A program made the position numbers and the translations under genes. The notes under the pieces were generated by a model. The model worked only from the letters and a program-made list of their open reading frames with translations, made no database searches and was not told where the DNA came from. From assembly GCA_051047955.1 (NCBI GenBank), contig JBPGPT010000002.1:124001-188000 (forward strand): a stretch of DNA of 64,000 bases, read 5' to 3'. How positions within the stretch are numbered: position 1 is the first letter of the stretch; each line of letters begins with the position of its first letter. Below, in pieces: positions 6,210-48,879 of this stretch. Source of the DNA: Cystobasidiomycetes sp. EMM_F5 (lineage: Eukaryota).

Positions 6210-6969
6210 ATGGGCTATACTACGGACTTCAAAGGGCACTTCGTCTTCAATCGCCCTCTGGACGACGAGACATGCAAACTTCTGACGGGTCTTGCCGCCA
6301 CTAGACGTGTGAAGCGCAAGTTTCGCCAGACGGATGGTTACGGTATCGATGGAGAATTTTACTGCTCTGACCAGGAGCCTATCGACCAGCAAACAGGCAA
6401 GGTTATCCGCAACATCGTAGACGATAATGAACCACCACGCACGCAGCCGAGTCTGTGCTTGCAATGGGTGCCATCCGCAGACCGAAAGGAACTGCACTGG
6501 GACGGAGGTGAGCTAAAAGACCGCCGGTTGAGCTGCAGGCTTACAGACGGCTTGCTACAGGAGAAAAGTTCTACGGCTACGTCGCTTGGCTTGAGTATTT
6601 GCGCGAGAAGATCCTAGCTCCGAGAGGCTACAGTCTTGGCGGCACTGTGCTTTGGTTTGGCGAGGCCGCTTCCGATACTGGCGTTATCACTGCAGTGCCG
6701 GAGGGTTTCATCATCAAAGGTAATATTGTCGAACAAGGCTACGCGTATGCTCACAAAGCCGGCTGCTGGCTACATAAGGACACTGAAGAGAAGCCAAATA
6801 ACTGCTTTAGTAAGCAGCCAGCTTCAATTTCTGCTCACACAGCTTGCTGATACCGGCCCTCACCATCACGTCAGGCTGCCGGCAATACGCCAACGTGAAG
6901 AAAGTTGACAATCTTCTCGACCATTACTACAGTGGAGAGGATGTGGATGTACCGCTTTCCGAGTGGTGA
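6210..6969 (+). CDS. Uncharacterised protein, copy A, resembling a phage/giant-virus/bacterial hypothetical family; 3 exons (6210-6507, 6561-6809, 6875-6969)
   Basis: MGYTTDFKGHF...TRRVKR...YGIDGEFY...NEPPRTQPSLCLQWVPS...HWDGGEKFYGYVAWLEYL...GYSLGGTVLWFGE. Introns 6508-6560 and 6810-6874 (GT..AG) restore a frame collinear with copy B. Confidence 0.8.
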
Positions 6970-7639
6970 TAAATGTATTTGGCGACCCGTAACACGCCTC
7001 AGACGGGACTCCTTTTGTAGTCTTCTCATATTGTTTCTTATGGCCGATGTACTCATTTGTGCGACCCTAGCGTGCGGACTAAGCTGAACTCCAAAGAGAG
7101 CAAAGGTCCATTGGTTACCAACTCTATAACTTCTGCTCATTCTCATTCCATCTGACGCTACGCTGCACTCCTGATGACATCAATGTTAAAGCCCTCCGCT
7201 GACAACGAAGCACAGATATGGCTGCTGTGGTCATCACATGCTCTACGACGGTCTCCTGTCCCTTCGCGGCCCCAGATCGCTAAGCCACTCAATGCAAAAA
7301 AGGCAATGTACGAGTCTCTAAATCCAACCCTATTTGAGCTCTATTGAAGTCTTGCTGCATCTCTCTGCCGCTTCGAAAGAAAATAAGCTCCTATATCATC
7401 CAACCCAAGCGGAGTGTATTTGACACAGACTATTCTCATGATAGAAAGGACTGTCATCAACACCGCGCTTTCTCACCAGCGGTAACGTTCACAGTACGAA
7501 GCGGCGGACACAATCGCCACCGACTATGGTGTGATGCGCAACCGTTTGACGCCAGCCTGGCGAATTTTTAACGGCGTTTGTTTCGCATATTTCTCGTCCC
7601 TCCTTCTCTTTACTCGTCACCCGACCCAAAGAGTCAAAT

Positions 7640-8434
7640 ATGGGCTACACGACAGTGTTCAAGGGTCACTTCACATTTTGCTGCGCTCTCGATGATGAGA
7701 CGTACAAACTCTTGGCGGGTCTTGAAAGTACTAGGCGCATGAAGCGCAAATTCCGCAAGACGGACGGGTATGGCGTAGATGGGGAGTTCTATGTAGCAGA
7801 AGACGAGCCGGTCGATCCTGCGACTGGTAAGCGTATCTCTACCATCGTAGACTACAACGTTCCACCTCGCACGCAGCCGAGTCTGTGGTTGCACTGGATC
7901 CCATCTGAAGATCGGAGAATGCTACACTGGAGCGGAGGTGGGCTGAAAGGGCAGTCACAGAAGCTGCAGACTGACACAGGCGGTCAACAGCGGAAAAATT
8001 CTATGGCTATGTGGCTTGGCTCGAGTACCTGCGCGAAAAGATATTGGCTCCGAAAGGCTACAGTCTCACTGGAACGGTACTCTGGTTCGGAGAAGACGGT
8101 TCCGATACCGGTGCCATAACTGCAACACCGGAGGGATTCGTGATCAAGGGTAACGCTGTCAGACAAGGCTACGCATATGGCTTTAAAGAAGAAGAGTGCT
8201 GGAAACACAAAAAAGAGACGAAAAAGTCGAGCGATTGCTATGGTGGGTGTTGAAACGTCCTCACATTAACGCAATTTGGCTAAGATTTGTGCGGTCTATG
8301 TGTTCACGCTAGATTGCCGCGACCTTATCGCTGCCGAGGAGAGAGACGATCGCCTCGACCGCTACTACGAAGGAGAAGATATCGAGGTGAACAAGGAGGC
8401 TGCTCATGGCTGGTCTGTCATCCGTGGTGCTTGA
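7640..8434 (+). CDS. Uncharacterised protein, copy B (tandem paralog of 6210-6969); 3 exons (7640-7937, 7991-8242, 8313-8434)
   Basis: MGYTTVFKGHF...TRRMKR...YGVDGEFY...YNVPPRTQPSLWLHWIPS...HWSGAEKFYGYVAWLEYL. Introns 7938-7990 and 8243-8312 sit at the same positions and phase as in copy A. Confidence 0.8.
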
Positions 8435-28351: not shown

Positions 28352-29760
28352 CTAGGCAGGCGCGTAGTACGCGGTCCACAAGGCTATTGAAACAGCGCCC
28401 CAAATGATACAATACGACAACCATAGTCTGGCCGTCTTGGCGTGAGTGTCGGCAAGGTACGCCAAGTACCACCATAGGACTGGATTTGTGCAAGCTTGAC
28501 GCAAAGCAATCTGTACGTGGCTGGCAGTGAGGAGAAGCAATGACAGGATAGTGTGGAGATAGATGTAAGGGAGCAACCTGGCCGACAGGAAGGGATGCGG
28601 AGCAGCAGCACGAAGCGCGACAGCGGGCTTGAGGCAGCGAGGTAGGCTCATCCTTACTAGATGTTTAGAATGATGAGAATAATATCTGATGCTGGCGGAA
28701 GCGGCGACAGTCAGCACAGGTGCCGCAAGGGCAAAATTGGGAATCTGCTGAGGACTGAAATATCGCAAGAATCCGACATTCCTGCAACAATGCATGAGCC
28801 AGCGTAAGACTGCACGGACAAGGCTACCGACCAGTATTCCCGCTGCGCGAATTGATAGACAAGGGGCAGTGTGTTATTGCACCAGGCTCGCGAAGCATTC
28901 GGGCCACAGAAGCGCACGAAAGCTTGTGACTGATGCAGAATGAAGGGAGCGGCAATGAACAATGCTTGCATCGCAACTATGGGCAGCTTTGCAGCAGCCT
29001 GGCATATCTTATAAGCGGGGAGTACAACCCGGCTTTACAAAATCGCTCACTGATAGTATAGAAGGTTGCGAGAATAGGCCATACCAGACAATGAAGCCTG
29101 CATTGAGAATGCCGTTTGCCCTGAATGCTGTAGCTAGCGCAAATGCGCAGGAAGCACTCCAAATCCAGTCATAGCATGTCCAGAGCATTGCAAGGAATGT
29201 GAGAAATGCGTAGAAAGGCTCCGTGTATGGAACAGATAAGACTGCAGGGCTTGGAGTGAGACAATATAGTCGTGCTACTCGCTTCGCATAGATCGGAGCG
29301 CCGGTCATTTGATGGGTGAGTCTGTTTGCAGCTGTGCGTTAGCGAATAACAAACACGGTTCGAAACGAGAATACCTGTGCAACAGAACAGGTGTCATGAG
29401 ACTCAGCAGACCAGCTAGCAGAGCGGTTCCGACCACTGCCCGGTCTGCAGACAGACTTCCGTCAGATGACCATCCGAAGAGCCTGAGTAAAATCGGAGAT
29501 CCTGGTAGAAATGCATTGTGCTGTTCAAGGCGGTAGCCATGTCTGGCTACATCGATGAAATGCACGGTGTCCCATTGTACGGAAGGCTTCGCGGCTTTCG
29601 CGAGCCAGAAAGAGCCTTCACGTTTTATTGCAGCATGACCAGAATCGTCGAATACTCCAACGCATAAGTGACTACCGAGTGCAAGTGCCCATATTGCGCA
29701 TCGTGTAGCGATGGAGAAATTCAGGATGGATGCCTCATCTGCAGTCAGGTATGGGCGCAT
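28352..29760 (-). CDS. GPI18: GPI mannosyltransferase II (PIG-V)
   Basis: QWDTVHFIDVARHGYRLEQHNAFLPG, SVPYTEPFYAFLT, FRANGILNAGF, NVGFLRYFSPQQIPNFALAAP, HVQIALR and C-terminal YYAPA. Confidence 0.92.
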
Positions 29761-29920
29761 TACGCGCGTTCGCGCCCAGGCAAACGCGTCACGATAAATC
29801 CCAAACACAAACACAAAAAATGCAGGATGATGGTGGGCATTGGTGGCTAAAACGTATGCGATGTGCTGGGAACTAAAGTACAGATGAAAGGTGAAGCTAC
29901 GTGACTGCAAAGGCGCACAT

Positions 29921-31091
29921 TCATACTGAATTGCGCTCTGGTTTCTTTTCGCTTTTATGCAACATTCCCTCGGGACTATTTGAAGACGGTTGTTCGCCTG
30001 GCACGCGGGTCACTCCGGAGTATCTCGGAGCCATATTGACCAGTAAGAGGATGGTGACGACGATGATTTCCGGAAGGAAGACCGTACAGTAGAATGCCCC
30101 TTTATTATAGTACCAATGGTCGATCATCGGGTTGGCGAAAGACTGAGTCACTTTTACAGCCTGGTAGTAAGTAAGAGCCTTATCAGTCTTCTGACGTGGT
30201 ATGACAGTGACCTGACTCATACATATTCGAAGATTAGGCACGCCGCGGCCAAGAAAAGATAGGACAGGTTCTTCCAAACCCGGGAATCTGAATCCCAGGA
30301 CTTCAGACCATACTGTCCTACTTCGTGCTGTCTTTGGCGATCTCCGCTTCTCATTCGCCAAATCGCAATGAAGGCCAGAAGCGGGATTGGCATCAGGCTA
30401 TAAACTAGGAAGGCTACAGAACCTATCCTCTTCAGAGTAGTATCGGTGCTTTGTATGCTGGGGTCCGTCGTCAAAAACCCTTGAATTGCTCCCGTAATAA
30501 GAATAGCCAAGAAGGCTAGTATACCAAATGACAAGGCGGCAAATATTTTGTGCACTATCGCTTTGCGCGCGAGGTGCTGCTGCCAGTAGTGATACTGCGA
30601 TCTATAGATTGATTTCTTGCAGCATTGTATTACGACCTGTCGGAGTCATTCGGTGAGACTTGCAGTCAATCTCAGGCTACGAAACGGACGCACCAGCACC
30701 AGGATTACGGTACCAGCATTGGTGAAGACTTGCGAAGCGATTGCAATGCCTGAATCCGCAGGGTGAACAGCCCAAGCGATTCGAGTGCACATGGTGACGA
30801 TGCGAGACTTTACGGCAGAAAATTAGAAAGAAAATGCCACGAGCGGGAGACAAGCGAGCCGCATTACCGCGCAAAATCCAAAGGTAGCCATTTGCCAGCT
30901 GTTTCAACAAGTTTTGAGTTACGGTGAGCTCCCAGCTTACAGCGGCACTCACCGCAATTGTTTACTATATCGCAGGAAGAAGAAAACGTTGAGGACCGCG
31001 CCAACGATGTATATGGGAAGGAGGATGGAGCAGATGATTACATCGGGATGAACCGAGGCTATTCCTCCAGCAATATGGACCCTATTGACAT
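29921..31091 (-). CDS. Multi-pass membrane protein, DUF3112/RTA1-like
   Basis: GGIASVHPDVIICSILL, RIVTMCTRIAWAVHP...IAIASQVFTNAG and WYYNKGAFYCTVFLPEIIVV; about 7 hydrophobic segments. Confidence 0.65.
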
Positions 31092-44491: not shown

Positions 44492-47400
44492 TCACACTAG
44501 ATCCGGATGCAGGGCTACTTCGTCCATCGGGACTTGCACCGTCACTTTCTGCCCATCAACATCAATGTCTGCCTCGACGTGTTTCCCGTCAGAACTGACG
44601 TGAGCTCCTTCGTGCACTCCCGGCCCGCGAATCTCCTCTCCGGGCGTAGAGACTGACTGCCTGCGGGGGAGTGGGCGAGTGAGTGCACTGGCAGCTGTCT
44701 TGGATGGTGAGGATGCTGGCCAACTCGGCGGACTACTAGCCACAGCGTCGGAGTTCGCCGTGTGTGAAAGCATTGGTCGATTGGGCGATTTTGAAGATGT
44801 CTGCTGTGAAAAGTCATAGTCTCCCGACGCAGCATGTTCGTCGCTCGTTGCAAAGTCACCAAAATCGTCGTCGTCAAATTGACCGTTCGGCGTCAGACTG
44901 GGTGACGACCCGTACTCAAAATCGCCGAAATCGGCATCGTTTGCTGATCCTTCAAGCTCCGAGGTGTCGTAATTTTGTCTGAAGGATGCACTCCAGTCGG
45001 CAGCTACGCAACATGCACATTGATCAGCTTTCACCACAACGCCAACGACACCTGTACGCACGAGTGAGCTTTTGCGGGCGGGAAGCATCATCCGCTTTCG
45101 AAGTACTGCTGCTTCCGAAATCGTCCTCAAAAGATAATGGCTGATCTGTCGAATTATCCGCCGCGTTCGTATCGGAAAAGGGATCAAAGTCATCATCGTC
45201 GGCTAAGTCGCGATCGCCGTGGGAGAAGCCATCTTCGCTGTCATCGTCAGATCGGTGATCGAAGCGAGTCTGCTCATCCAAGCCATTTTGAGTTTTCCCC
45301 TTTACCGCGATCAATCTGACAACCTGCACTCACATCAAATCCAAGCCGTTCTTGCCGCTTGCCTGAAAGCGATGACTCGTGTATGCGTCTTGTCTGATTG
45401 CCATCCGAAGTACCGACGCCAAGATCGTAATCGTGCAAACGCCTAGTTTGCTCGTCAAAGGCACCCTCTTGAATATCGTAATCGTCCAGAGTAGAATCGC
45501 CATTGACATGGCGTCTAGACGAAGATGTTGTTCCGGCTTTTTTGGCGAAATGTGAGACTGTATGTTCGGATCTCTCCTCACTATCAGAGGACGAATCGGA
45601 ATCTGATGAGCTAGACGATGCCGCTGATGGGTCCAGGTGATTGGAGCCGGAGAAGTCTGCAGACATGTGCGCCTGCATATACCTTGCAAACTGCAAGGCG
45701 AAATTCAGAGAAATGGTCTGCGATATGATGTAATTCATTACGTACGTGTGCCTTTTCTGGATTTGCGTCAGATCCTTCGCTGACTTGGTCTGCACTGAAC
45801 AGGGTTCGTCCAGCTTGACCGGGAAACTCATCGTCCGTTTCGAGAACACCAATGCCACCGCTTCCGTTGGACACGCTAGGATTCATCTTTACGCTTACCG
45901 CGCCACCCAAACGCTGCAAGTCGCGCTCTCGAGTCTCTCGCAGGTGGCCTTCGACATAAGCCTCCCATCTCTGACGATCAAATGCAGACTTAGGAATTTC
46001 CGCGAGAATAATGGTTGGATAATCGTAGAACAATTTGACGATTTCTTCGCTTATCAGGGTCAGATGTCCCATGTTACCCAACCTCACACCATGTGGGATG
46101 GAGCTGCATACGAAAGCACTTCAGTACCCTAAGCAGCGATTGTGACACGAAATGCCCTACGTAATTTTGCGGTTCTCTTCCACTGCGTCTAGAACTCGAT
46201 TGACAAGGCCTTCCTGCTGACTGAACACGGAAAGGCAAAGCTCTCGATTGGGTCCGGTTTCTAGCTTGCCATTGAAAACCTGCTGCAGCAAATCGTACAC
46301 CACGTTATGAAGGAAATTGTTCCAAGGGAATCGGAAGAACAGGTCCTGAAGATGAATGTGCACAGAATCAGCCTTTAACGAACGGTACGAGAGCAATAGT
46401 CCCGGTAAGTCCTCACGATGGCTGCAGGCACAACTTGGAGATTGACAAAAGCTTGCTTAAGAGCTGCGCCTGCAGGTAGCTGCTGAATCCGCGTGTCATC
46501 GGGTTTGGCGTCCACCGTTGCGGGCTCGATAGAATCATGGCTGGGCATTGCGTCATTGGATGAGTTTGCATGTGTCTGCGATATCAGAGGAGACTTTGAC
46601 AAGCTGGATGACTTGGGTACGACTTGCAACGGAAGCTCTCCATCGTCGCCGAGATCTATGTCATCTGTCGCCGAGCTGATGAGGTCTATTACGTCGTTCG
46701 AGTCGTCTCTGCTGTCCTGTTCGGCCGAGTGCGCGTATGAGGATGTAACGTCACTCTCAATGGACGATGCATGCGAGTCACTACTCTCGAGAGCGACATT
46801 TTCAATCATGCTTGGTCCATCATCTTCCAGCGTGTCATGAGCGGCTGCCATCTCCGTCGGCAGTAGTGGTGAAGTTGGTGAAGGATTTAGCGCTGCATTG
46901 AGTCTATGGTATGCCTCTTTCCGAGTACCCAAAATGCGGCCTGTCTTTGAGTCGTACGAAGGTATGGGTATTGAGCCGGGCTTTTGCGATTGTACACGAT
47001 TCAGAATAGTCATATTTGAGCAGTGAAGAAGCTCGGCGTAAAGCTCGCATATTCGGAATCGTTCGAAAGTGAGGGGTTCTTGTTTTTCTACTCCCTGCAG
47101 AGTCGTTAATTTCGGTGTAATCTGCAAGACGGCCAGTAGTGTTACTTTGGCTTCGCTGATTTGGGACGCGTGTATCATACTCACATCAGATCGAGGTTGT
47201 AATAGCAGCCCATGAAGGTCGGGCAATCTGCGAGCTAAGCTCGACAGCATAGGGCTGAGATCCACCAGTGAAGGTCCAAAGCCGCTTGTTTTGCCTGCTA
47301 TGTAGCTCTCCTCGCCTTCTCCTTCACGACCTAGATCTTCGTCGTCGCTGTCATCGTCTAGGTTTGCACCAATACTCTCAAGATATTGCAGTATTTGTAG

Positions 47401-48879
47401 TTCTGTAAAGTCTGAATTATTTTTTCGGATGATGTCGATAATGAGCGTAAGACAGTTGAGAAGAGAGGATGTAGAGGCTTCAGAAGATGCTAGAGCCAGT
47501 TTTTTCGGGAATTTATGGGCAACTGGTGTAACAGGATCATCCTGGTCCGCCTCCGCTTGTAGGTAGAATGAAGAAGGCTCTGCTGTTGGCGGAGCTTGAA
47601 AGTCGAACATGAAGTGAAGTAATCTATCGATAGTCTTTTGACAGGAAATCTCTAGGACTAGCGTATTGTTTGGCCACGGCGACCAACCATCTCCCGTAGA
47701 CCCAAAGCCACTGGCCGATGGTTCCGCTCCTGGCTTGTGACCCTGTTGCTGCGCCTGCTGCTGTTTGCTAGCGGACGCAGCCGACGCAGCTGCGACAATT
47801 CCCCGCAATAGGTCGCCTGCAGCAGTGTGCGCTTCGAGTGACGAAGTAGCAGGATTCAACAGCTCAACCGCCTGCGGCACAAGCCCTGCTGAGTGGAGCC
47901 ATGCAATGATGCCGAGTTGTGGATGTTGATCATCCGAATTAATGAGTTTTGTGAGTATATCAAAGATGGGGGAGATATACGGGAGGTGGAGTAACATCCT
48001 TTCAAGAAGCCGGGGTACCGAATGCAGGAACTGAATCATTTGGGAGATACGATTGTTGGAGAGATACTGGATGTTGACCTTTGACCAGTGTCCGACCTGT
48101 ACACTCATGCTGGCCAATTGGTCCGGTGGCTGATCCAAGATAGCGTTCCAGAAAGGCACTGTTGTGTATTATGTCAGCCACGCTGCTCCCGAAAGTGCAT
48201 CAGATTGCTACTGACACAAATAGGTATGTGTATCGCCGAATATTGTGTCTGAGATGCGCCAATTATCCAAGCAGAGAATCTCTACGCAGAGAAAGGGATA
48301 TCTACGTTGAGGCGGAAACATCAGAGAAGGGTCATAAGGGTCGACTTGGCAAGAGCCGCGCAGGTGAGACGCACTTCATACGCTTTCGCACAAGGTCTTG
48401 ATCCAGACTGCTGCTTTTAGTCGGCTCCACATCGTTGCTAGCAGCAGCCGTATTCTTTGGGAGAGCGGACAGGCCGGACCACGTCGGCTCCAGGAATACT
48501 TCTCCCGAAACATATGCGAGCATCCGACTGACGGCATACGGCGTGGATAGATAATCAATCTGTATGAAGCCATAATTTCAGTATCGACAGGTGACAGGCC
48601 TAGCAAGCCAGCGACAGTGGGTAAGTATGTTCGCACCAGCTTTTCATGGCCAGACTTGCATTCTTGCAGCAAATCTTCCTGATCCAGAAGCTGTTCCAGC
48701 GTCGGATTTACGCTATCTGAAGAGCTGAGCTCTGCATCGTGCGATACGACGTCCGAGGGACTGCTGCTCCCGCTGGACGCGGAGCTCGAGTGCTGTCCAA
48801 ACGTCCGCGACGGTTTCCACGCCTGCAGCAGCGTCTCGATGGCATTATCGTTCGCTATGCCATATTTCCAAAAAGTCAT
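44492..48879 (-). CDS. SAPS-family Sit4/PP6 regulatory subunit (Sap155/185/190, Ekc1-like)
   Basis: MTFWKYG, LEQLLDQEDLLQECK, IIRKNNSDF, EPLTFERFRICELYAELLHCSNM, LFFRFPWNNFLHNVVYD, RLGNMGHLTLISEEIVK and an acidic tail. Confidence 0.92.

Follow-up and report, generated by a model that had tools for sequence, protein, structure and literature searches.

A tandem gene pair in a basidiomycete yeast, probably derived from an old capture of a mobile-element gene

Two tandem paralogs in the basidiomycete yeast Cystobasidiomycetes sp. EMM_F5 very probably go back to one old capture of an accessory gene from a mobile element, which would have been followed by the gain of introns and a C-terminal tail, by duplication and by purifying selection on both copies. 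That a basidiomycete yeast captured a foreign gene long ago is fairly clear. The relatives of the pair are found mostly on viral, plasmid and prokaryotic DNA, and in our trees the yeast proteins fall inside a mostly viral clade.

Gene structure of the tandem pair

Both genes lie on the + strand of the window (the whole 64-kb stretch of DNA that was analysed), at positions 6210-6969 and 7640-8434, and each consists of three exons and two GT..AG introns (Table 1). A preliminary description had assigned to each copy two introns at identical positions and in identical phase, with a first intron of 53 nt; the spliced models reproduce these coordinates and features, and all of the conserved motif blocks quoted there recur in both copies in the paralog alignment. 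Exon 1 measures 298 nt in both copies, which sets intron 1 in phase 1, and intron 2 likewise falls behind the first base of a codon, at homologous sites in the two copies; exon 2 differs by one codon in length. Excision of intron 1 from gene 1 restores the reading frame and the W-x-G-x-EKFY spacing of the intronless relatives, and residues 1-95 of one of these, the metagenomic protein P0022, align to gene 1 exon 1 in a tblastn search. Without splicing, both copies would shift frame after exon 1 and lose the conserved EKFY..GE half.

Table 1. Features of the two paralogous genes and the spacer between them (window positions).
Feature	Position	Strand	Description
Gene 1 exon 1	6210..6507	+	ATG at 6210; 99 codons plus 1 base; product MGYTT..TRRVKR..YGIDGEFY..PPRTQPSL..HWDG
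Gene 1 intron 1	6508..6560	+	53 nt, GTGAGC..CTACAG, phase 1
Gene 1 exon 2	6561..6809	+	EKFYGYVAWLEYL..GYSLGGTVLWFGE..SDTG, then onset of lineage-specific tail; phrog_38666 E 1.1e-6 with this exon alone
Gene 1 intron 2	6810..6874	+	65 nt, GTAAGC..CGTCAG, phase 1, within tail C-x2-C (predicted)
Gene 1 exon 3	6875..6969	+	C-terminal tail, TGA stop
Spacer between copies	6970..7639	.	Stretch separating gene 1 and gene 2
Gene 2 exon 1	7640..7937	+	99 codons plus 1 base
Gene 2 intron 1	7938..7990	+	53 nt, GTGGGC..CAACAG, phase 1
Gene 2 exon 2	7991..8242	+	phrog_38666 E 4.2e-7
Gene 2 intron 2	8243..8312	+	70 nt, GTGGGT..CGCTAG, phase 1; junction as in deposited P0001
Gene 2 exon 3	8313..8434	+	TGA stop

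The spliced genes measure 642 nt (213 aa plus stop) and 672 nt (223 aa plus stop), respectively. The product of gene 2 is identical to a deposited protein of the same isolate (P0001 = KAL7009588.1, "hypothetical protein EMMF5_000495"). Gene 1 had no spliced protein record in the protein collection searched, so that outside support exists for the gene 2 model only; the deposited model is a prediction, because the genome paper describes no transcriptome. The second intron of gene 1 is predicted solely from the conservation of exon 3 between the copies.

Duplication and purifying selection

The two proteins are identical at 140 of 213 aligned residues, and the copies recover each other in tblastn searches at E-values of 1e-43 and 7e-36, far beyond chance. 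They are in register with each other, 1430 nt apart, and no third copy was found in the 64-kb window by tblastn, where the next matches had E-values of at least 0.57. Intron 1 retains some similarity between the copies (37 matching positions, as against 31.2 +/- 1.9 in shuffled sequences, with 0 of 300 shuffles reaching 37). For intron 2 the identity did not exceed that of the shuffles, and in global alignments the flanks were about as similar as intron 2. The common intron positions and phase, the residual similarity of intron 1 and the shared private tail together indicate that the introns were gained before the duplication, as had been suggested from the sequence at the outset. The order of events would thus have been capture, acquisition of introns and tail, and then duplication.

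Purifying selection on the copies, also part of the preliminary description, is indicated by a dN/dS of about 0.08 overall and 0.07 in the core, values that are rough since dS is saturated (about 3). The uncorrected proportions were 0.216 for pN and 0.737 for pS, which gives a pN/pS of about 0.29.

Chromosomal setting

The pair is situated in genuine fungal chromosomal DNA. KAL7009588.1 is recorded on a 1.19-Mb EMM_F5 contig, and the window also encodes eukaryotic GAT, PIG-V, Bin3, HLH, RGS, SAPS, PTPA and RMND1/DUF155 proteins, with eukaryotic genes on both sides of the pair. The GC content of both genes equals that of the window (52%), GC3 is 0.58-0.59 in the pair as compared with a span of 0.50-0.62 in six native frames, and the RSCU correlation is 0.48, with controls at 0.17-0.55. 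Searches of PDB sequences with three flanking frames gave no matches, and no other viral gene was seen adjoining the pair in the window.

We also considered whether the pair might be an inert relic, either not transcribed or in decay, or else an artefact of assembly or contamination. The missing protein record for gene 1 would be compatible with this, but both spliced frames remain open throughout their 213 and 223 codons although synonymous divergence is saturated, and pN/pS is low, at about 0.29. Also at odds with this reading are the GT..AG introns, the host-like composition and the eukaryotic genes on either side; according to the genome paper, a cultured isolate was sequenced to 142x and screened for contamination. 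We therefore regard a relic or artefact as highly improbable.

The MGYTT family and its carriers

The family core comprises about 150 aa and always begins at residue 1 with MGYTT, and all of the relatives examined are intronless. An E-value of 1e-3 or better was reached by 587 of 837 candidate proteins, and HMMER returned 1752 clusters at the same threshold. The profile phrog_38666 (PHROGs v4) matches all 41 of the aligned members (best E 4.6e-22), including P0001 at 1.2e-14. In Pfam, the four exon translations matched 0 families at E <= 1, and no family was matched by more than 1 of the 41 members; NCBIfam and PADLOC gave 0 families each for the 4 proteins queried.

Confirmed relatives are encoded by 190 of 409 pattern-matched stretches in IMG/VR and by 164 of 205 in prokaryote genomes (GTDB), where 48 of the 80 loci taken are cyanobacterial. 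The nearest viral contigs carry hallmark genes of tailed phages; encoded on them are terminase, T4-type portal and capsid, ERF, sigma-70, DUF932 and GP88. Plasmid carriers appeared in 13 matching records, including Enterococcus and Bacillus, and members on mobile elements are placed among early or establishment-type accessory genes. A tblastn search of curated phage genomes with P0001 and P0022 gave no match, and the phage label is thus based on metagenomic viral contigs and on the PHROG match. The preliminary description had linked the motif series to phages, giant viruses and bacteria, and this link agrees with the phrog_38666, IMG/VR and prokaryote matches, with a relative on a GVMAG contig among giant-virus-type neighbours and with a fold match in Tupanvirus.

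Gene neighbourhoods and fusions gave little guidance. The cyanobacterial neighbours VTT/DedA, STAS, Uma2 and pilin are conserved among close relatives only, and Calothrix loci have a vWA gene in their place, so that no operon partner emerged. Domain fusions are rare, with 1 TPR and 1 WGR in 31 longer members, and uninformative; another member, P0150, has a low-complexity tail rich in Ala, Ser and Thr. DUF1281/Api92-like (PF18406), a frequent neighbour at viral loci, proved unrelated to the family (hhalign probability 0.2%, E 0.35).

Phylogenetic placement and possible donors

Our careful tree comprises 78 rows and is unrooted, and its bootstrap had not fully settled (correlation 0.967). The two fungal proteins group together with support of 100/100, and with the intronless P0022, which a 171-kb contig encodes, at 97/91. 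The enclosing clade (100/94) holds 46 rows, of which 25 are viral, 13 metagenomic, 6 prokaryotic and 2 fungal, and the quick tree of 138 rows places the pair in the same way (support 89). Two starred branches part the pair from most of the family diversity. The fungal pair is thus nested in a mostly viral clade, a nesting that would be lost if the root fell on the fungal stem. This is where the phylogeny proposed in the preliminary description leads, and the placement supports its reading of a horizontal acquisition. The cyanobacterial members form a clade of their own elsewhere in the careful tree (100/100), and the chromosomal clade of filamentous cyanobacteria is well supported and roughly follows taxonomy.

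An alternative is that the pair represents an old eukaryotic or fungal gene that descended vertically and was lost or missed in sampling elsewhere, or that the transfer went from a eukaryote to viruses. The EMM_F5 lineage is poorly sampled, as the isolate has no sequenced sister taxon according to the genome paper; some of the family matches, for example P0150, could be eukaryotic, and the tree is unrooted. Yet the query itself is the only named organism among the best 120 of the 587 matches, all 160 of the 160 retrieved relative loci are prokaryotic or viral, the relatives examined share the MGYTT start and lack introns, and the two starred branches set the pair apart. Among the 1752 clusters, most of which carry no organism label, there was no other fungal match above 57% identity, which weakly suggests that the family is absent from other fungi. 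We consider vertical descent, or transfer out of a eukaryote, quite improbable.

The donor could also have been a giant virus of a eukaryote (Nucleocytoviricota), through infection or an endogenised viral fragment, and a eukaryotic virus would be the more natural route into a eukaryote. A full-length relative with 42% identity (L100) lies on a GVMAG-labelled contig beside DUF5832, an EF-Tu-type GTPase and an ADP-ribosylglycohydrolase, a second with 39% identity (L091) lies on a 440-kb contig of 23% GC, and a Tupanvirus protein matches our model by fold (E 3.3e-8). These giant-virus-like contigs are nevertheless more distant, at 39-42% identity, than the closest relatives at 50-57%, a set made up of P0022-like proteins from metagenomes and of contigs that bear tailed-phage genes. 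Among the relatives, it is the phage-like ones, not the giant-virus-like ones, that lie nearest. In the careful tree, L100 falls in a different starred subclade and L091 has no resolved position within the same large clade, and the lack of a further viral gene beside the pair in the window also speaks against this donor. We find a giant-virus origin improbable.

We therefore favor the hypothesis that the yeast lineage, once and long ago, captured an accessory gene horizontally from a mobile element of bacteria; the likeliest donor is a tailed phage, a prophage or a plasmid. The captured gene would have drifted toward the base composition and codon use of its host, acquired a C-terminal tail of its own along with two spliceosomal introns, and then been duplicated in tandem, with purifying selection keeping both copies. 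In this account the homology, the nesting, the gene structure, the duplication and the signal of selection are observations, and the direction of transfer, the donor type and the sequence of events are inferred from them.

Protein core, tail and fold

The core, about 150 aa long, is predicted to fold as a compact alpha/beta domain in which a beta strand and an alpha helix are followed by a long loop, three short strands, a second helix and a four-strand meander. The invariant basic, acidic and aromatic residues are, in the numbering of gene 2, R32, R33, N73, Q79, W83, W86, W97, E101, K102, W109, Y112, E134 and D138. The private tail of about 65-75 aa (residues 148-223 in gene 2) contains the motif C-x2-H-x9-C-x2-C; in the protein collection this segment had no relative except itself, and against the ESM Atlas it gave no usable match. 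The whole protein reached a best ESM Atlas score of 0.86, to viral hypothetical proteins, which serves as a lead only.

With high-confidence predicted models, no known fold was recognised. The family profile found 0 PDB sequences at E <= 1, the best Foldseek match in the PDB had an E-value of 2.4 with the fungal model and of 0.7 with that of P0022, a model with a pLDDT of 92, and VIA-align against 48,161 chains gave best Z scores of 4.6 and 4.8, with none at Z >= 5. Faint resemblances to TBP, McrD, cyclase and Ntn folds all lie in the noise range. Rows of the Ntn-hydrolase or class II amidotransferase type (asparagine synthetase, PPAT, Anbu, EgtC and SPO2029) had Z scores of 3.2-4.8 over 83-103 of 161 residues, noise by the tool's own statement, and removal of the Met from the M-G-Y-T-T terminus would leave a Gly, which is not a nucleophile. 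The many rows of the class III nucleotidyl cyclase or palm-like type (Z 3.1-4.2, 105-115 residues, rmsd 4.3-5.0) are in the same range, and strand 1 (Y-T-T-x-F-x-G-x-F) has no conserved Asp.

One tentative idea, to which we give limited credence, is that what the core binds or modifies is a universal ligand, such as nucleic acid or a nucleotide-like compound, and not a protein specific to one host. It is suggested by the identity of about 50% between the yeast and phages of very different hosts, and by the long-term retention on cyanobacterial chromosomes. More speculative still, and in our view rather unlikely, is that the MGYTT family represents a new-fold module of phages, plasmids and giant viruses that is useful to cells and was domesticated independently at least twice, in filamentous cyanobacteria and in a basidiomycete yeast, where introns, a zinc-knuckle-like tail and a duplication would have followed. 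If so, the module would probably act on nucleic acids or nucleotides as universal substrates, and genome defence or nucleic-acid handling would be conceivable roles for the yeast copies.

Discussion

The capture of bacterial genes by fungi with later intron gain is already well documented, and the event itself is therefore unsurprising. What deserves attention is that phages and other mobile elements are the main carriers of the donor family, and that it is large (1752 clusters) and very well conserved, with no Pfam model, solved relative or recognisable fold. That a yeast has kept it, in two copies and under purifying selection, offers a rare eukaryotic handle on the function of the family, and a yeast knockout or a ligand-bound structure could provide annotation for thousands of hypothetical proteins of viruses and bacteria.

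The closest described counterpart among phage families is phrog_38666, a profile of 144 positions. The matches of exon 1 and exon 2 are collinear on it; the best fungal stretch covers positions 40-106 (gene 2 residues 78-145), and exon 1 gives a weak match (E 0.032) at positions 30-61. Introns and some 70 aa of C-terminal tail set the fungal genes apart from the profile. As phrog_38666 has no annotation, membership in it is uninformative on function. Cultured and named carriers are represented by RefSeq proteins of Enterococcus and Bacillus plasmids (e.g., WP_103301217.1 and WP_128748543.1). The plasmid proteins cover 89-97% of P0022, with identities of 41.7-53% in 12 of 13 records and 31% in Bradyrhizobium; their genes are intronless, unannotated ("hypothetical protein") and adjoin an orphan DNA methyltransferase and small hypothetical genes. 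The sole significant fold match is A0A6N1NUV7 from Tupanvirus soda lake (BFVD), likewise unannotated (Foldseek probability 1.00, 18% identity, TM 0.39-0.44, rmsd 18 over 283 columns). On these predicted models, the match shows that giant viruses carry distant relatives and gives no pointer to function.

A survey of 750 fungal genomes identified 20,093 prokaryote-derived genes and discussed intron gain (PMC11708051). The yeast pair resembles the cases described there in being of foreign origin within a fungal genome, subject to purifying selection and equipped with introns that postdate integration. It differs from them in that its relatives reside mostly on viral or plasmid DNA rather than bacterial chromosomes, in that its family lacks both a Pfam model and an assigned function, and in that a duplication after intron gain and a private tail were added. 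Neither Pucciniomycotina nor Cystobasidiomycetes is mentioned in that article. The co-option of phage lysozyme genes by bivalves (PMC5303276) differs from the yeast pair in that the lysozyme is an enzyme of known function and of clear benefit; there, likewise, a phage-type gene was captured and kept by a eukaryote.

Gene structure of the tandem pair

Joining the predicted exons confirmed that two intact paralogs lie at 6210-8434, each with two introns at matching sites and in matching phase, and a pairwise alignment recovered in both genes all of the conserved motifs that the preliminary description had reported. Each spliced frame holds one stop, at its end, and all four introns run from GT to AG, with lengths of 53 and 65 nt in gene 1 and 53 and 70 nt in gene 2. 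Exon 1 is 298 nt long in both genes, so that intron 1 interrupts a codon past its first base, and intron 2 likewise cuts a codon after the first base, at a homologous site. The spacing from gene 1 to gene 2, in register, is 1430 nt, and a tblastn search of the 64-kb window found no third copy (best hit beyond the two loci, E 0.57).

Coordinates in the window of the tandem genes and of two split eukaryotic domain matches
Feature	Position	Strand	Open frame after joining
Gene 1	exons 6210-6507, 6561-6809, 6875-6969	+	213 codons
Gene 2	exons 7640-7937, 7991-8242, 8313-8434	+	223 codons
PIG-V mannosyltransferase match	28355-30009	-	
SAPS (SIT4-associated) match	45614-48168	-	

Retention of intron 1 shifts the frame in both copies, with loss of the conserved second half. 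Residues 1-95 of P0022, an intronless metagenomic protein that is the sister of the pair in the trees below, match exon 1 in tblastn and residue 94 onward matches exon 2, so the alignment breaks exactly at the predicted intron 1 junction; in the W-x-G-x-EKFY region, the spliced yeast protein aligns with the family without gaps. For intron 2, which lies inside a tail common to the yeast copies only, the predicted boundaries have two supports only, the deposited model and the fact that exon 3 is conserved from one copy to the other. That deposited protein, KAL7009588.1 ("hypothetical protein EMMF5_000495", Cystobasidiomycetes sp. EMM_F5), equals spliced gene 2 at every residue. EMM_F5 is a cultured leaf-surface yeast with an Illumina assembly, annotated by prediction (PMC12697161). 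No record of the spliced gene 1 protein (6210-6969) was found in the protein collection searched, where its sole entry is the window's own read-through frame of 135 aa (P0075), and gene 1 may be absent from, or differently modelled in, the deposited annotation.

The DNA around the pair is fungal. The window encodes the eukaryotic domains GAT, PIG-V mannosyltransferase, Bin3, HLH, RGS, SAPS, ThiF, RMND1/DUF155, PTPA and aldehyde dehydrogenase, several of which are spread across frames in the pattern expected of intron-bearing genes. The PIG-V and SAPS matches are split over adjacent frames, as expected for yeast genes with introns, and the region from 9 to 27 kb is largely occupied by long open frames without a Pfam match. 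The GC content is 52% in gene 1, gene 2 and the window, and 31-49% in the viral contigs nearest to the pair. Both the GC3 (0.58-0.59) and the codon preferences of the two genes fall inside the range of six native frames.

The family and its carriers

The yeast proteins share a core of about 150 aa with what we call the MGYTT family, for which no model was found in Pfam, NCBIfam or PADLOC; all 41 aligned members match phrog_38666, a profile with no assigned function, as does the gene 2 protein at E 1.2e-14. A word-indexed search yielded 587 relatives among 837 candidates, and an exhaustive HMMER search returned 1752 clusters at E <= 0.001, of which 848 also passed 1e-10 and 39 passed 1e-30. Members are mostly 145-200 aa long and intronless, with MGYTT at residue 1 in all but a few. 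The core, about 50% identical between the yeast and its closest relatives and with 26 invariant columns in the 41-sequence alignment, is strongly conserved. Among the rare longer members, P0216 contains TPR repeats and P0273 a WGR domain; in P0261, about 60 aa are inserted following the first strand.

A link to phages, giant viruses and bacteria had been proposed, and relatives were indeed confirmed in IMG/VR (190 of 409 pattern-matched stretches, many contigs being 100-440 kb), in species-representative prokaryote genomes (164 of 205), on plasmids and on a giant-virus-type contig. The 80 prokaryote loci kept comprise 48 from cyanobacteria, the remainder being from Bacillota, Planctomycetota, others and two archaeal MAGs. 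The viral contigs nearest to the yeast genes encode large terminase, T4-type portal, prohead protease, Gp23 capsid, ERF and sigma-70-like factors, together with the accessory families DUF932, GP88, SprT-like and C5 methylases; a tblastn search of a curated phage genome set gave no match for the gene 2 protein or for P0022. A single GVMAG contig carries the family beside giant-virus-type neighbors (DUF5832 and an EF-Tu-type GTPase), and a Tupanvirus protein (A0A6N1NUV7) was the sole significant fold match of the yeast protein, in a Foldseek search of BFVD. Thus, giant viruses also carry the family, with members 39-42% identical to the yeast protein. Thirteen plasmids (Enterococcus, Bacillus, Mammaliicoccus, Bradyrhizobium) encode it as "hypothetical protein," and orphan DNA methyltransferase genes lie near the plasmid member in both regions inspected.

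Several viral contigs have features of their own. L148 (341 kb) contains two adjacent copies (L148:8001-8456 and L148:8763-9242), which are 42 and 36% identical to the query and represent a tandem duplication separate from that in the yeast. On the very AT-rich L091 (440 kb, 23% GC), the family member adjoins two concanavalin-like lectin genes, an R2K ATP-grasp gene and an IS605 OrfB/TnpB-type gene. The T4-like phage contig L093 has inteins in its portal protein and PrkA-type kinase (L093:172-3051 and L093:10903-14316), with a LAGLIDADG domain within the PrkA intein.

Phylogenetic placement

Before the trees were built, filtering out rows above 90% identity and those covering fewer than 100 core residues reduced 156 rows to 112. 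A hand-picked subset of these, together with 13 metagenome proteins, made up a careful tree (78 rows), and a quick tree (138 rows) agreed with it. Neither tree is rooted, and bootstrapping in the careful tree had not fully settled. Genes 1 and 2 are mutual closest relatives (100/100), with P0022 as their sister (careful tree, 97/91; quick tree, 89), and all three fall within a mostly viral clade of 46 rows (100/94), consisting of 25 viral contigs, 13 metagenome proteins, 6 prokaryote genomes and the 2 fungal genes. This nesting, which is lost only if the root is placed on the yeast stem, supports the horizontal or viral acquisition suggested earlier.

The cyanobacterial sequences form their own, fully supported clade, whose inner branching roughly tracks taxonomy and thereby suggests long vertical inheritance; it looks like a separate, older domestication. 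This chromosomal clade (48 loci, L009-L073) spans the filamentous genera Microcoleus, Coleofasciculus, Calothrix, Scytonema, Stigonema and Leptolyngbya, and in Microcoleus-like genomes the member is flanked by VTT/DedA, STAS and Uma2 genes.

Order of events and selection

A single capture would account for the monophyly of the pair, the common intron sites and the common tail. Compared copy to copy, intron 1 has 37 matches against 31.2 +/- 1.9 in shuffled controls, a value that none of 300 shuffles attained. Intron 2 also has 37 matches, but its shuffles give 37.9 and 231 of 300 attained the observed value. The similarity of intron 1 beyond its shuffles, along with the common sites, argues that the introns are older than the duplication, as had been envisaged. 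Synonymous divergence between the copies is saturated (pS = 0.74) and the duplication is old. With pN at 0.22, dN/dS is about 0.08 for the proteins as a whole and 0.07 for the core, values to be read with the saturation of pS in mind, in line with the proposed purifying selection. The tail evolves faster (pN = 0.35), and a search of the protein collection found no relatives of it besides the tail itself. Both copies have kept C-x2-H-x9-C-x2-C in the tail, a possible zinc knuckle.

Structure and possible function

The model of the fungal protein is confident in the core only, and that of P0022, built from 146 sequences, reached pLDDT 92.3 and pTM 0.88. No known fold was found for either in a Foldseek search of the PDB (best E 2.4 and 0.7, respectively), and the best VIA-align scores over 48,161 chains (Z 4.6 and 4.8) are under the tool's typical range even for unmatched models. 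Class III cyclase, Ntn-amidotransferase, TBP and McrD folds recurred among the rows, all at noise level.

No conserved operon partner was found among the neighbors examined. In a local BLAST of the fetched flanks with seed proteins, one or more of methylase, DUF932, GP88, SprT-like, DUF1281_C and ERF turned up at 29 of the 80 viral loci and at 4 of the 80 genome loci, an uncontrolled count. Such neighborhoods resemble the sets of early or establishment genes that mobile elements carry, which PMC11541004 describes for plasmids. The high conservation across carriers of very different hosts and the long chromosomal retention in cyanobacteria led us to a working guess, admittedly a doubtful one, that the protein might act on a universal ligand rather than as a host-specific protein inhibitor.

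Comparison with known transfers

Overall, the results support the foreign-derived origin first proposed for the pair. Transfers from prokaryotes to fungi followed by intron gain are common, PMC11708051 reporting 20,093 genes of this type in 750 genomes, and the yeast pair is a further example. What distinguishes it is that the family is large, conserved and at home on mobile elements, that it has neither annotation nor a recognizable fold, and that the tail and the duplication came after the capture.
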